A DNA stretch of 26,655 nt from an archaeon (lineage in GTDB: Archaea > Undinarchaeota > Undinarchaeia > Undinarchaeales > Naiadarchaeaceae). Shown one piece after another: positions 58-3,998 of this stretch. A model generated the notes under the pieces. That model had not been told where the DNA came from. It did not search any database and worked only from the letters and a program-made list of their open reading frames with translations. The translations under genes and the position numbers were made by a program. The DNA is taken from assembly GCA_037442905.1 (NCBI GenBank), contig JBBIPJ010000001.1, forward strand, positions 1-26,655, in the 5' to 3' direction. Positions within the stretch are counted from its first letter, which is position 1. Every line of letters starts with the position of its first letter.

Positions 58-1332
58 ATGAAAAATATCCCGCGTGGTGTCCGCGATTTTCCACCAGAGG
101 AAATGCGCAAAAGAAATTTTGTTCTGGATAAAATTGCGCAAATTTACAGGAGCTATGGCTATCAGCAATTAGAAACCCCTGCTTTTGAATTTCTGGATAT
201 TTTAACTGCAAAAAAAGCAGGCGGGGAATCAATTAACAAGGAAATTTTCAAGTTTGAGGACCTTGGAGGAAGATGGCTTGGATTGAGATTTGATTTAACA
301 GTTCCAGTTGCAAGATTTATAGCACAAAATCCTAATTTACCAAAACCTTTTAAGCGTTTTCAAATAGGAAGAGTTTGGAGATATGAGGAGCCGCAGGCTG
401 GAAGGTTTAGAGAATTTTGGCAGGCTGATGTTGATGTTTTTGGAAGCACAAATGTTGAATCTGATTTGGATGCCTTAAGCGCATGCATTGCTGCTCTAAA
501 AGAGCTTGGTTTTAAAGATCTAATTGTAAAAATAAATTCAAGAAAACTTTTGGAAGAAATTGCTTCCACAGCTGGTATAAAAAGAGAGTTTATAACAGAA
601 TTTTTCAGGATAATTGACAAACTTGAGAAAATTGGAGAGAAAGGAGTTAAGCAGGAATTAAAAGAGAAAAAATTCCCTGTTTCAGAGAATTTGTTTAAAT
701 TAATTTTACTTGAGGGCGCGCCTGAGAAAATTTTAGCAAGTGTTAAGAAAGAAATTAAGGACAAAAAACCAGCCGAGGAGCTGGAAGAGTTTTTCAAATT
801 GGCAAAAAGTTTCGGAATTTCTGAATATCTTAAACTTTCACTCTCTCTGGCGCGCGGCTTGGACTATTATACAGGAATTGTTTTTGAAATTAAAATAAAG
901 GGAATAGAAAAATTTGGCTCAGTTGCAGGCGGAGGGAGGTATGATAATTTAATTTCTTTATACGGAAAAGAAAGCGTGCCTGCTGTTGGAATCTCAATGG
1001 GAGTTGAGAGAATTTTGGAAATAATGGAAGAGAAAAAAATGTTTCCTGATTTTTCTGGAGAGCCAAAAGTTTTAGTTGCTCCAATTGGAGATACTCTTGA
1101 AAAGGCAATTGAACTCTGCCAAAAGCTAAGAGCTAATAGCATTTCAGTTGATATTGATTTAATGCGCAGGAATATTGGAAAATTAATGAACTATGCAAAT
1201 TCTATGAAAATCCCCTATGTTGTTGTAATTGGGGAAATAGAGGTAAAGGAGAATAAATTTACTTTAAGGGATATGAAAACAGGGAAACAGGAAATGGTTT
1301 CAGAAAAGGATTTGCTTAAAAAGTTATCTTAG
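58..1332 (+). CDS. hisS: Histidyl-tRNA synthetase
   Basis: PRGVRDF, LRFDLTVPVARF, RYEEPQAGRFREFWQADVD, ARGLDYYTG, GGGRYD, and a C-terminal anticodon-binding domain. Confidence 0.97.
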   Translation: MKNIPRGVRDFPPEEMRKRNFVLDKIAQIYRSYGYQQLETPAFEFLDILTAKKAGGESINKEIFKFEDLGGRWLGLRFDLTVPVARFIAQNPNLPKPFKRFQIGRVWRYEEPQAGRFREFWQADVDVFGSTNVESDLDALSACIAALKELGFKDLIVKINSRKLLEEIASTAGIKREFITEFFRIIDKLEKIGEKGVKQELKEKKFPVSENLFKLILLEGAPEKILASVKKEIKDKKPAEELEEFFKLAKSFGISEYLKLSLSLARGLDYYTGIVFEIKIKGIEKFGSVAGGGRYDNLISLYGKESVPAVGISMGVERILEIMEEKKMFPDFSGEPKVLVAPIGDTLEKAIELCQKLRANSISVDIDLMRRNIGKLMNYANSMKIPYVVVIGEIEVKENKFTLRDMKTGKQEMVSEKDLLKKLS

Positions 1333-1390
1333 CCTCCCGCAATCAACCCCCTTATCGCATCATATACTTCAGCGCCCTTTTCATTAGTTC
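1329..1390 (-). pseudogene. Frameshifted remnant of the 3' end of the PINA ATPase gene
   Basis: 1322-1385 aligns with 2401-2466 (about 49/66 nt by hand). The minus strand reads ELMKRALKY, then a 1-nt deletion, then DAIRGLIAGG*, versus EQIRRALRYNDAIRGVISGNSG* at the PINA C-terminus. Confidence 0.75.
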
Positions 1391-1402
1391 ACATCATATA
1401 GA

Positions 1403-1447
1403 CGAAAAGTTTATATAGTATGAACGCTATGTTCACGTAACATGAAC
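1403..1447 (+). promoter_or_regulatory. BRE/TATA promoter of the MNT-HEPN pair with a putative operator
   Basis: CGAAAAG-TTTATATA (1403-1417) lies about 25 nt before ATG 1442, consistent with a leaderless mRNA. Inverted repeat TGAAC-N5-GTTCA at 1421-1435, with a further TGAAC at 1443-1447. Confidence 0.6.
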
Positions 1448-1983
1448 TTGCAAGAACTTTTTTCAACAAAAGAGCGGGAGTTGATAATAAATTATTTATT
1501 GGATAACCCAAATGTAGAAATAAATATGTATCAAATTGCAAAAAAACTAAAAATCAGCCGCAGCCAAGTCCATAAATATGTTTCAATTCTACGCCGTGAA
1601 AATATTGTAAAAGGAAAAAAATTTCTGAACATGCCCTTAATAAACTCTTTGCGCCTAACTAGAAATTTGAATAAGATTAATGAATTTAATATAGTTAAAA
1701 TTTTGCAAAAATATTTCCCAAGAGCAGAAGGCATAGGAATTTACGGCAGCTGGGCAAAAGGCACAAATGATGAGAGCGCTGATTTAGATTTTTGGATTAA
1801 AATGCAAAATCTCCAAAAGATATTGAAATTGCAAAAGCGCGCCGCGAGATTGAGCAAAAAATTGGCAAGCCAGTTGATATAACAATTTTAACCCCTGAAA
1901 GAATAAAAAATTTGCGCGAAAAAAATGATTCTTTTTATTTTTCTTTATACCATGGAATTATCTTATGTGGTGAGGGCTTATGA
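1442..1983 (+). pseudogene. wHTH + minimal nucleotidyltransferase (MNT) antitoxin with a 1-nt frameshift
   Basis: N-terminal wHTH (INMYQIAKKLKISRSQVHKYV) and GSx10DxD motif (GSWAKGTNDESADLD). Adding one A to the run at 1799-1802 restores NAKSPKDIEIAKARREIEQKIGKPVDITILTPERI...GIILCGEGL*, whose TGA (1981-1983) overlaps the HEPN ATG. Confidence 0.85.
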
Positions 1984-2402
1984 TATCTTACGAGGAATGC
2001 GTTAATCAGGGTTTGCTTAGAAAAATAGCACCTTCAATTACGCAGGCAAGAGAACAATTAGAAAAAGCAAAAATACTTTTAGAAGAGGCACAAGATTCCT
2101 TCGATATGGAAAATTACAACTCTGCGGTTATGGCTGGTTACGCAGCAATGTTTGATTCTGCAAGGGCAATTTTATTTAAGGATGGTTATAGAGAAAAAAG
2201 CCATGCGTGTGTTGCGAGATATTTAGAAGTAAATTATGCAAATAAAATTGATTCAGAAATAATTAATTTGCTTGACCAATATAGAGAGCAGAGGCACAAA
2301 GTTATGTATGCTGTTGATTTTTACCCAACTGAAGAAGAAACTAAAAATCTACTTGATTTTGCAGACAAATTTATTAAAAAGGCTGAAGAAATTTTAAAAT
2401 AG
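1980..2402 (+). CDS. HEPN domain protein (UPF0332/COG1895 type), partner of the MNT
   Basis: 140 aa helical protein with AGYAAMFDSARAILFKDGYREKSH and YREQRHKVMY (R-x4-Y variant), directly downstream of the MNT. Confidence 0.88.
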   Translation: MISYEECVNQGLLRKIAPSITQAREQLEKAKILLEEAQDSFDMENYNSAVMAGYAAMFDSARAILFKDGYREKSHACVARYLEVNYANKIDSEIINLLDQYREQRHKVMYAVDFYPTEEETKNLLDFADKFIKKAEEILK

Positions 2403-3998
2403 TTATCCTGAATTCCCGCTTATTACTCCTCTTATAGCATCATTATATCTCAGCGCCCTTCTAATTTGCTCCCCATATTTTCCTTTCAGTTTAACACGAA
2501 CCGCGGCCTCTTTTCCAAGTTTAGTTTTAAACAGGAAATTTTTTCCTGCATAAACTTTAATATCTTTATTTGCAGCAGCTTCTCCAAAATCCAAAATATA
2601 TTCTGTTTTTGCATGCGCTAAAGTTGCAATAACTTCTTTCGGCGCTTCCCCCACTTTCATTATAACAGTTTCCTCTCCATAGGTATACATCTCATACTCA
2701 ACTCTGTTGGTTTCAAAATCTCTTACCTCAACAACAGGCCTTGCTAAATCTGATTCAAACATTCCTGCAGGAACTTTTACAGTTAATTTTGTATCGTATA
2801 CTTTTTTAATTTCCGCATCCTTGATGTAAATTACTGTGTCAACTATCAGCGGAATCTGTCCTAATTCTAAACGAATAACCATTCTCTGCAGCGCATCAAT
2901 TGGGGCAGAAGCATGAGTAACTCCAACCATTCCAACTCCTGCTAAACGCATATCTGCAAAAATTTGGAAGTCCTGCGTTTTTCTTACCTCATCATAAAAA
3001 GTGTAATCAGGGCGCACAAGCAAAAGCACATCAGCTGTTTTTGCCATCTGTCCTTCTAAAGGAGCATACTGAGTTATTTCAGGCTGTACCTGCAAATCTC
3101 TCGGGCTTTCCATAGTTTTTACAATTGATTTTTTCTCTTTTACAAAAAATTCTGCAAGCGCTGCTGCAAAACTTGATTTCCCAGCGCCTGGCGGGCCGCA
3201 AATCAGCACGCCTTCTGCTTTTTCTTTCAATCTTCTCAGTAATTTATCAGATAATTTATAAGATTCAAGTGAAACCTTTGCAATTGGACGAACTGCTGTT
3301 ACTTCCAGTCCATCAGAAAACGGCGGCTCTGCAACTGCAATCCTGAAATCTCCCATCTGCACGACTGTTGCGCCTTTCATTGAAATTTCAATTGCCTGAT
3401 TTTCCCTTCCATAATCAATTACTTCCTTTACAATTTCGCTTAACTCCTGCTCGTTCATTTTTTCTTTTCCTAATTCAACAAGCCTTACATTTCCTGGCCT
3501 GCCCTTTTTTGCAACAGGAACAGTATTTACTTTTAAATGAACGCTCATAGTTTCCTTGTCAAAAAATTCCTGTATGCGCGGCTTTTCGCGAATTTTTTTC
3601 TCAATATACCTGCAGTTAATTCCTCTTGCTAAAGCAACTTTATACTGAATGTAATCAGCAGTTAAAAGAGTTGCATTTAATTTTGCAGCTGTATTTCTGA
3701 TTAAAGCATCTATTACTCCAAATTGTGCAGCTTTTATCTCCTCAACTGTGGGAAGCCCTCCATAAAAAGTTAATTTTATCTTTCCTTCTTTCTCAACCTC
3801 TTTTAATTTTGCAATTTCATCCAATCCTTCAAATCCAATCGCTCTTCCTTTGTTTGCCTGATTCTCCAATTCAGAAAGAACAACTTCCAAAATTATAATC
3901 TCTCCGCTGAGTTCTCCAGATTCAATCAGTTTTGAAACCTTAGCTCCAATAAGGACTGAGGTATCCGGAACAGTTCTCTCATTCAATTTAGTTTCCAT
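2403..3998 (-). CDS. PIN domain + PilT-family ATPase (PINA, COG1855 type)
   Basis: N-terminal PIN (VPDTSVLI...ELENQAN...DALI...LLTAD), Walker A GPPGAGKS, KTMESPRDL, LLVRPDYTFYDEVR, DMRLAGVGMVGVTHA. Confidence 0.92.
   Translation of the reverse strand: METKLNERTVPDTSVLIGAKVSKLIESGELSGEIIILEVVLSELENQANKGRAIGFEGLDEIAKLKEVEKEGKIKLTFYGGLPTVEEIKAAQFGVIDALIRNTAAKLNATLLTADYIQYKVALARGINCRYIEKKIREKPRIQEFFDKETMSVHLKVNTVPVAKKGRPGNVRLVELGKEKMNEQELSEIVKEVIDYGRENQAIEISMKGATVVQMGDFRIAVAEPPFSDGLEVTAVRPIAKVSLESYKLSDKLLRRLKEKAEGVLICGPPGAGKSSFAAALAEFFVKEKKSIVKTMESPRDLQVQPEITQYAPLEGQMAKTADVLLLVRPDYTFYDEVRKTQDFQIFADMRLAGVGMVGVTHASAPIDALQRMVIRLELGQIPLIVDTVIYIKDAEIKKVYDTKLTVKVPAGMFESDLARPVVEVRDFETNRVEYEMYTYGEETVIMKVGEAPKEVIATLAHAKTEYILDFGEAAANKDIKVYAGKNFLFKTKLGKEAAVRVKLKGKYGEQIRRALRYNDAIRGVISGNSG

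Follow-up and report, generated by a model that had tools for sequence, protein, structure and literature searches.

We propose that a small two-gene cassette, which encodes a minimal nucleotidyltransferase (MNT) and a HEPN-domain protein, probably entered the junction between two convergent housekeeping genes in this member of the Naiadarchaeaceae, with duplication of about 65 nt of the target and without a site-specific recombinase. The locus is located near the start of the stretch analysed here, the first 26,655 nt of contig JBBIPJ010000001.1 (assembly GCA_037442905.1), which we refer to as the window. The two housekeeping genes are hisS on the plus strand (58-1332) and, on the minus strand, the gene for a PINA-type PIN-domain ATPase (2403-3998), and they are spaced about 1070 nt apart. 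Between them follow, in order, a stretch that resembles the end of PINA, a short promoter region, the gene for an MNT with a helix-turn-helix (HTH) domain and the HEPN gene. The evidence comes from the repeated PINA end, an empty site in relatives, the borders of the cassette, the recurrence of similar repeat brackets in the cassette family and short overlaps at the junctions, whereas the mechanism of joining is something that we infer.

The 3' end of PINA is present twice, on either side of the cassette. The live end, which is the right copy (2403-2468, minus strand), encodes ..QIRRALRYNDAIRGVISGNSG*, and the live gene finishes with ..IRRALRYNDAIRGVISGNSG*. The orphan end, which is the left copy (1322-1387, minus strand), reads ..KRALKY / DAIRGLIAGG*, with ..MKRALKY in one frame, DAIRGLIAGG* in another and a 1-nt deletion between them, in addition to other indels. 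Its stop codon TAA is the complement of 1329-1331 and overlaps the stop codon of hisS (TAG, 1330-1332). The similarity beyond 1387, up to 1399, is better taken as the left operator of the cassette, with the right border of the orphan at 1385, and the coordinates given for the copies in a preliminary description of this DNA, 1322-1385 and 2401-2466, are the better boundaries. That description had also reported a match of about 49 of 66 nt, the two reading frames of the orphan with their 1-nt deletion relative to the live end, and differences at third codon positions in the DAIRG block (GCG/GCT, AGG/AGA and GGG/GGA), all of which we recovered.

The repeat is far outside what is expected by chance. 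In a global alignment of the two copies, 49 of the 66 columns are identical (74%) and the score is 60, as compared to a mean of -0.9, a standard deviation of 6.6 and a maximum of 29 in 5000 shuffles, so that the significance check suggested earlier had a clear outcome. The local alignment score is 43, the best score elsewhere in the window is 25 and the maximum in 2000 shuffles is 32. When the last 78 nt of PINA were aligned to all downstream sequence, the orphan position obtained a z of 14.6, and the z of the repeat is about 9-14 overall. No further copy of either PINA tail was found in the 783-kb assembly or elsewhere in the window. Logan contigs of the likely source run, which were produced with a different assembler, span both junctions (900-1506 and 2119-3000) without differences. 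Since independent contigs bridge both junctions, an assembly chimera is an unlikely origin of the arrangement.

Searches with PINA, hisS and HEPN were performed over 40 related genomes and public assemblies. The names attached to close homologues point to a Naiadarchaeum-like member of the Undinarchaeota. The gene order of hisS, the convergent PINA gene and a gene for a 173-aa protein is kept across this order of archaea. Empty sites, at which hisS converges directly on PINA, were identified in G002, which belongs to the same family (82% identity in PINA), in L036 (80%) and in G011 (71%), all of them from other genera. At these sites the ends of the two genes overlap or touch, and PINA has just one tail. 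In the window, it is the orphan that occupies exactly the place of this one tail, overlapping the stop codon of hisS. The comparison with related genomes that the preliminary description had called for was thus positive, and the empty sites and the position of the orphan support its proposals that the 3' end of PINA received a foreign element with the MNT-HEPN pair and that a PINA end now lies beside hisS, on the far side of this toxin-antitoxin pair.

The insert spans approximately 1388-2402, or about 1015 nt, and consists only of a promoter and operator region, the HTH-MNT gene and the HEPN gene. Its GC content is 31-33%, as compared to 37% for the genome. The left end (1388-1441, plus strand) contains a TTCAC half-site (1388-1392), a TATA box (TTTATATA, 1410-1417) located 25 nt from the start codon of the MNT gene, and a TGAAC-N5-GTTCA palindrome (1421-1435). 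We compared the 75 nt upstream of the MNT gene in a dozen homologues and found the same architecture, surrounded by unrelated flanks, at L037, L045, L046, L049, L121, L124, L126 and L127. The parts shared across these distant hosts are a TTCAC-N7-GTGAAC palindrome, the TATA box and a second palindrome immediately before the ATG. Conservation stops at the TTCAC box, which moves the left edge of the cassette to 1388. The two palindromes are likely to be operators for the HTH domain of the MNT protein. We also observed that the operator half-sites covary between loci (C/T with G/A).

The MNT-HEPN unit of L037 stands among unrelated flanks and is 75% identical to that of the window at the nucleotide level, with BLAST homology over 1402-2401, and the match between the cassette and L039, which also has unrelated flanks, likewise begins at 1402. 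At the right end, the stop codon of the HEPN gene (TAG, 2400-2402) abuts the stop codon of PINA. The last nucleotides of the cassette (2394-2402, plus strand), TTAAAATAG, resemble the end of hisS, TTAAAA-AG (1316-1323). This overlap, TTAAAA(T)AG, is the native end of the cassette, as indicated by L037, which ends with TTAAAATAA in an unrelated context. The same overlap matches the last codons of hisS, TTAAAAAG, and the alignment of the two junctions runs through it. On this comparison, the overlap looks like microhomology at an illegitimate joint.

We collected 160 loci with relatives of the HEPN gene from genome and metagenome collections, located the open reading frame for the upstream MNT in each, and aligned the 250 nt to the left of the MNT gene to the 250 nt to the right of the HEPN gene. 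Among the 109 other loci with sufficient flanks, 20 were above the 99th percentile of the between-locus null and 15 obtained a score of at least 40. As controls we used 253 pseudo-cassettes, displaced by 1.6 or 2.2 kb, and none of them had a direct repeat with such a score (Fisher p = 7e-9). In the inverted orientation 2 of 110 exceeded the null threshold. The brackets are 21-122 nt long and 74%-100% identical, and they consist of local sequences that are unrelated from one locus to the next, except at L142 and L147. Several are near-perfect, with 80 of 81, 29 of 30 and 21 of 21 identical positions. Together with the locus in the window, the finding that approximately one in seven of the related cassettes is bracketed by a local duplication, and none of the controls, suggests a recombinase-free route.

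The edges of the brackets also recur. The distance from the end of the left copy to the TTCAC box is 0-4 nt in the window, in L127 and in L046, where the bracket is 81 nt long (80/81). At eight loci, the start of the right copy falls between -9 and +22 nt relative to the end of the HEPN stop codon, and in the window, L046, L073 and L115 this copy includes the final 6-9 nt of the HEPN gene. A search for an empty site corresponding to the L046 bracket yielded only relatives of 67-68% identity, in which the left flank was not syntenic.

The most probable explanation is that a self-contained MNT-HEPN operon, extending from its own operators and TATA box to the HEPN stop codon, entered a junction at which the stop codons of hisS and PINA overlapped. 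About 65 nt of the target would have been duplicated in the process, so that both housekeeping genes remained whole. One copy of the PINA end would have stayed on PINA, and the other would have stayed next to hisS, where it later decayed through a frameshift and indels. The likeliest route would be illegitimate joining guided by microhomology. This could have happened by a template switch during replication or repair, with re-entry into the chromosome 65-75 nt or so behind the point of departure, or by illegitimate recombination in which the DNA of a relative was anchored by homology. Whether the two copies were identical at birth or the live end arrived with the donor DNA is about evenly balanced.

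Several observations weigh against this explanation. The empty sites come only from other genera, with 71-82% identity in PINA, and there is none from a sister strain. The closest relatives have other states of the junction (G001, L034, L035 and L212), and the state before the insertion in this lineage is consequently deduced from the position of the orphan rather than observed. Neither the sequencing run with the locus nor two further runs of the same study showed an empty-site allele in their reads and contigs, a null result that weighs neither way. The identity of only 74% between the copies implies that the event is old and that the junctions may have been reshaped since, and an overlap of 6 nt can arise by chance in AT-rich DNA. 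Finally, the mechanism for this kind of insertion is without experimental support.

The junction is variable among other relatives. In G001, which belongs to the same genus, a gene for proline dehydrogenase is located at the same place (L002, 477-1493). There are two small open reading frames in G004 and a racemase gene in G010, and in L034 a radical-SAM gene is located downstream of PINA. In L212, L213, L035 and G003, a whole operon for histidine biosynthesis is located between hisS and PINA, with hisG, D, B, a HAD phosphatase gene, H, A, F and IE (L212, 6276-11275; L213; L035, 2365-3913; L007 of G003, 196-1499). Since the operon is found at the junction in some close as well as in some distant relatives, the direct convergence of hisS and PINA elsewhere reflects the loss, or gain, of this operon of about 6 kb. 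A search for a relic of the PINA tail after hisS in two of the operon keepers, L212 and L213, gave nothing convincing.

We also considered the possibility that the live end of PINA was imported. A relative may have carried the cassette after its own PINA gene, and its DNA may then have been integrated by a homologous crossover in PINA and an illegitimate joint at the other end, such that the live tail is that of the donor and the orphan is native. This is a sub-case of entry without a recombinase and the one nearest to the suggestion in the preliminary description that the element supplied a replacement end; we regard it as possible, although less probable than not. In its favor, the core of the orphan is identical to the L034 tail at 37 of 41 positions, as compared to 35 of 42 for the live tail, and the orphan holds the state of the genus relatives at five differing sites. 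The amino acid replacements in the orphan are conservative and known from natural alleles, such as RALKY in G002. Furthermore, the last 55 codons of PINA lean toward L036-like states when G001 is taken as the near relative (A/B 21:22, versus 210:98 in the body of the gene; p = 0.016). The triplet test was negative in the other eight of the nine combinations, however, and the mosaic boundaries that breakpoint scans detected in PINA are at other positions, near codons 180 and 374. When polarised with the relatives, the derived changes are about five on each copy, and no donor in which the cassette is adjacent to PINA was found in the searches.

The positions of the substitutions are part of the same question, since the differences at third codon positions had been taken to mean that the orphan diverged while it was still coding. 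Over the two copies, 10 of 18 substitutions are at third positions, as compared to roughly 44% expected if the orphan had drifted neutrally, which is a rough estimate. This excess is not significant for the window alone, and the argument is not sufficient because synonymous drift in the live copy yields the same picture. One member of the family has a repeat in which the differences clearly follow the codons. The 122-nt bracket of L146 (1523-1644 and 2891-3012) is a mosaic, with identity over the last 45 nt and 19 differing sites within the first 77 nt. Of these sites, 13 are at third codon positions of the upstream gene, and there is no indel. The two copies look like two alleles of one gene end. 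With four loci pooled, 32 of 50 differences are at third positions. On the basis of L146 and of this pooled share, the cassette family does seem to include cases of homology-anchored import with a diverged relative as the donor. The near-perfect brackets of several other members, on the other hand, require no diverged donor. Homology-anchored recombination is a mechanism documented in bacteria, and an outcome with an orphan left behind has been proposed for type VI secretion system (T6SS) and Rhs loci (PMC5361080).

Another scenario is that the hisS/PINA junction was duplicated in tandem in an ancestor of the genus and that different cargo later landed between the copies or was exchanged there. 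A point in its favor is that hisS in G001 is immediately followed by a relic of the PINA tail, 25 nt long, with the proline dehydrogenase gene between the relic and the live tail. The relic is located at the predicted spot, it is the best match within 1.5 kb (position-specific p of about 0.001), and it is most similar to the tail of L034. In the same contig (L002, 462-545), the annotated start and first six codons of the proline dehydrogenase gene (Pro_dh) are contained within the antisense of the relic. Chance insertion between repeated sequences is moreover a listed class in the survey by Furuta et al. (PMC2853133). We nevertheless consider the scenario unlikely. The G001 relic has no special similarity to the orphan in our genome, with a score of 21 versus 31 to L034, and the cassette fills the entire space between the two copies. 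Brackets of the same kind surround members of the cassette family at unrelated sites, which suggests that the duplication accompanies the insertion.

The preliminary description favored yet another interpretation, namely that the two PINA tails are the attL and attR sites of an integrative element from which the integrase and all other genes were deleted, leaving the addictive toxin-antitoxin pair. Elements that integrate at the 3' end of a gene and bring a replacement for that end represent a classical arrangement (class b, PMC2853133), and toxin-antitoxin pairs resist loss. There are also related loci, L142 (2168-2200 and 3596-3628) and L147 (367-443 and 1794-1870), at which the 5' portion of a tRNA gene (GTTAGCTCAATAGGTAGAGCAGCGGACTCTTAA), a typical attachment (att) target, is duplicated to form the bracket. 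These could be true att sites of the integrase type or target duplications at a tRNA gene. At the locus in the window, neither the gene list nor a Pfam scan revealed a recombinase domain in the insert or beside the repeats, and the assembly has a sole match to Phage_integrase (PF00589), which is located on a different contig (C59). Each copy lies no more than a few bases from the two-gene cassette, and two deletions ending exactly at the att borders would be needed to produce this. Related elements should share an att core, yet at least 13 independent family members have unrelated brackets of variable length; the brackets of the 15 related cassettes have no core or target in common, apart from L142 and L147. 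The PINA tail was not picked up at any of the 160 homologous loci, in a search that was not exhaustive. A lost integrase thus fits poorly, because the repeats touch the unit and the related cassettes have no common att site, and we judge the decayed element to be quite improbable.

It is likewise improbable that the operon moves on its own, as a unit delimited by the TTCAC operator and the HEPN stop codon, and that its products promote the insertion, with an HTH domain that binds the operator at the end and a nucleotidyltransferase of the Pol-beta type that acts on DNA ends; this would represent a recombinase-free mode of transposition that leaves long and variable target duplications, and what bears on it is only that independent insertions share cassette edges, within a few bases, and short overlaps at the junctions.

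Returning to the insertion with a target duplication, a precedent may be found among restriction-modification gene complexes, for which insertion with long target duplication was reportedly described by Nobusato et al. in 2000 (Gene 259:99). The published criteria include a repeat of more than 30 bp, an insert of less than 20 kb, the absence of any other mobile element and a repeat that occurs once in the genome without the insert (PMC2853133). The direct repeats in the window measure 64 and 66 nt. In G002, L036 and G011, which are other genera rather than strains, the site is uninterrupted and has a single counterpart of the repeat. The insert, with its 1015 nt or so, contains only HTH/nucleotidyltransferase and HEPN domains and neither a transposase, an integrase nor any other mobile element. 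Nor is the repeat a dispersed repeat or a tRNA gene or att site, since it is the coding end of PINA with a single extra copy, and scans for tRNA genes and Rfam families in the region returned nothing relevant. The cargo is MNT and HEPN instead of restriction and modification genes.

The resemblance to the long target duplications extends to the nature of the unit, which is small, selfish and of the "addiction" type, with no transposase or integrase of its own, to direct repeats of tens to hundreds of base pairs for which a relative has one copy at its empty site, to repeats that vary in length and sequence from case to case and often overlap the 3' end of a gene, and to an insert with a GC content below that of the genome. 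The differences are that the cargo is a MNT-HEPN pair and the host a DPANN archaeon, that the copies are old, with 74% identity as compared to mostly more than 90% in the published cases, and that the empty site is found in other genera only. What has been published concerns restriction-modification genes of bacteria, and no archaeal case survived the screen (Furuta, Abe & Kobayashi 2010, PMC2853133). The features of the locus fit a variant of the long target duplication with toxin-antitoxin cargo in an archaeon, outside the published set.

There are similarities to other systems as well. In homology-facilitated illegitimate recombination, which de Vries and Wackernagel as well as Prudhomme et al. 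are said to have described in 2002, and in the orphans of T6SS, Rhs and contact-dependent inhibition loci, a module that is anchored in a conserved gene displaces the old gene end, which is left to decay beyond the new module, and the junctions have short microhomology. For the effector-immunity arrays of the T6SS, orphan gene ends have been proposed to remain after the import of a module (Kirchberger et al. 2017, PMC5361080). The orphans in those systems represent the displaced tip of the toxin gene itself, whereas the target here is a housekeeping ATPase gene unrelated to the cargo. The direct repeat on both sides of the foreign DNA and the intact target gene are reminiscent of integrase-mediated integration into the 3' ends of tRNA or protein genes, from which the locus differs by the absence of an integrase, by the lack of an att core common to the related cassettes and by an insert of only 1 kb.

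It is poorly understood how toxin-antitoxin operons without mobility genes enter chromosomes. The route outlined above has been described only for restriction-modification genes in bacteria, and it appears to move toxin-antitoxin cassettes too, including in DPANN archaea. A long duplication lets foreign DNA into the overlap of two essential genes and damages neither of them. The locus adds an old and diverged case from the Archaea, along with numbers for a whole family, to an under-described mode of recombinase-free gene entry, and the shared cassette edges and junction overlaps provide concrete handles for experiments.

As for the cassette genes themselves, the MNT gene (1442-1983, plus strand) has similarity to the Pfam families HTH_11, Polbeta and NTP_transf_2, with a score of 24.7 bits for Polbeta, just below the cut-off of 26.9. 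In comparison with L037, it is broken by a 1-nt deletion after about 1802 (somewhere within 1799-1815) into pieces at 1442-1882 and 1813-1983. Intact relatives are about 180 aa long, and 134 of the 160 homologous loci (about 84%) have an open reading frame of 160-199 aa. The frameshift lies within 1772-2118, outside the cover of the Logan contigs, and it could either be that of a true pseudogene or an error in an assembly of 3-4x. The HEPN gene is intact although the MNT gene is frameshifted. It encodes a putative toxin of 140 aa (1980-2402, plus strand; Pfam HEPN, PF05168, 2.7e-17, 63 bits), and its start overlaps the end of the MNT gene (ATGA). There are 456 relatives at E<=1e-10, and the invariant residues R102, R105, H106 and Y110 form an R-x2-R-H motif. 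The HEPN protein would be the toxin and the MNT protein an antitoxin that represses its own promoter through the HTH domain.

The two-gene operon, with a Pol-beta-fold MNT followed by an overlapping HEPN gene, resembles type VII HepT-MntA systems and archaeal MNT-HEPN pairs, and HEPN-MNT modules are likewise highly mobile and patchily distributed. Unlike in HepT-MntA, the HEPN domain belongs to PF05168 rather than to DUF86/HepT, its motif is R-x2-R-H with no clear Rx4-6H, and the MNT has an N-terminal winged-helix domain, in a copy that is frameshifted. Against the MntA model of NCBIfam (NF047752, cut-off 60 bits), the window scores 19 bits and the intact L037 homologue 24 bits. The closest relative of the HEPN protein (81% identity) is encoded on contig P0002, where a 367-aa gene is followed by MNT, HEPN, a gene of 155 aa and, in convergent orientation, a stub of 35 aa; the 367-aa neighbor is not among the matches of the hisS search. 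A second HEPN gene in our genome (contig C112, 1806-2228, minus strand) is 41% identical to that of the window and is located at the end of a 2.7-kb contig, where its MNT partner is cut off.

Other local repeats are present in this genome. A scan of the 783-kb assembly identified at least 44 pairs of local direct repeats, 25-214 nt long and 100-4000 nt apart, such as those on contigs C68 (2053-2118 and 4472-4537) and C44 (3289-3336 and 5799-5846). The sampled pairs bracket genes for EF-1alpha, eIF2alpha and the tRNA-intron endonuclease, or genes without a Pfam match. They are probably dispersed families of intergenic repeats rather than insertions, and as those sampled mostly surround housekeeping genes, we make no claim that insertions of the kind discussed here are common in this genome.

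The hisS gene encodes a histidyl-tRNA synthetase of 424 aa (Pfam tRNA-synt_His, 2.5e-52, and HGTP_anticodon, 8e-20), and its relatives at 86-87% identity carry the name histidine--tRNA ligase. The PINA gene encodes 531 aa (Pfam PIN, 2e-10, and T2SSE) and scores 697 bits with the curated NCBIfam model for the PRK13764 ATPase (NF010335), well above the cut-off of 340, and 451 bits with the PINA equivalog (NF053733), under the cut-off of 800. The PINA proteins of this archaeal order are about 530 aa long and have no match to the KH domain (PF00013), which is present in the homologues of 600-650 aa in methanogens, Aenigmatarchaeota and others. At the very start of the contig (1-40), 20 nt upstream of hisS, we observed a sequence that resembles a tRNA gene in its T-arm and in the 3' portion of the acceptor (GAGTTCGAATCTC..); neither ARAGORN nor Rfam made a call for this truncated piece.

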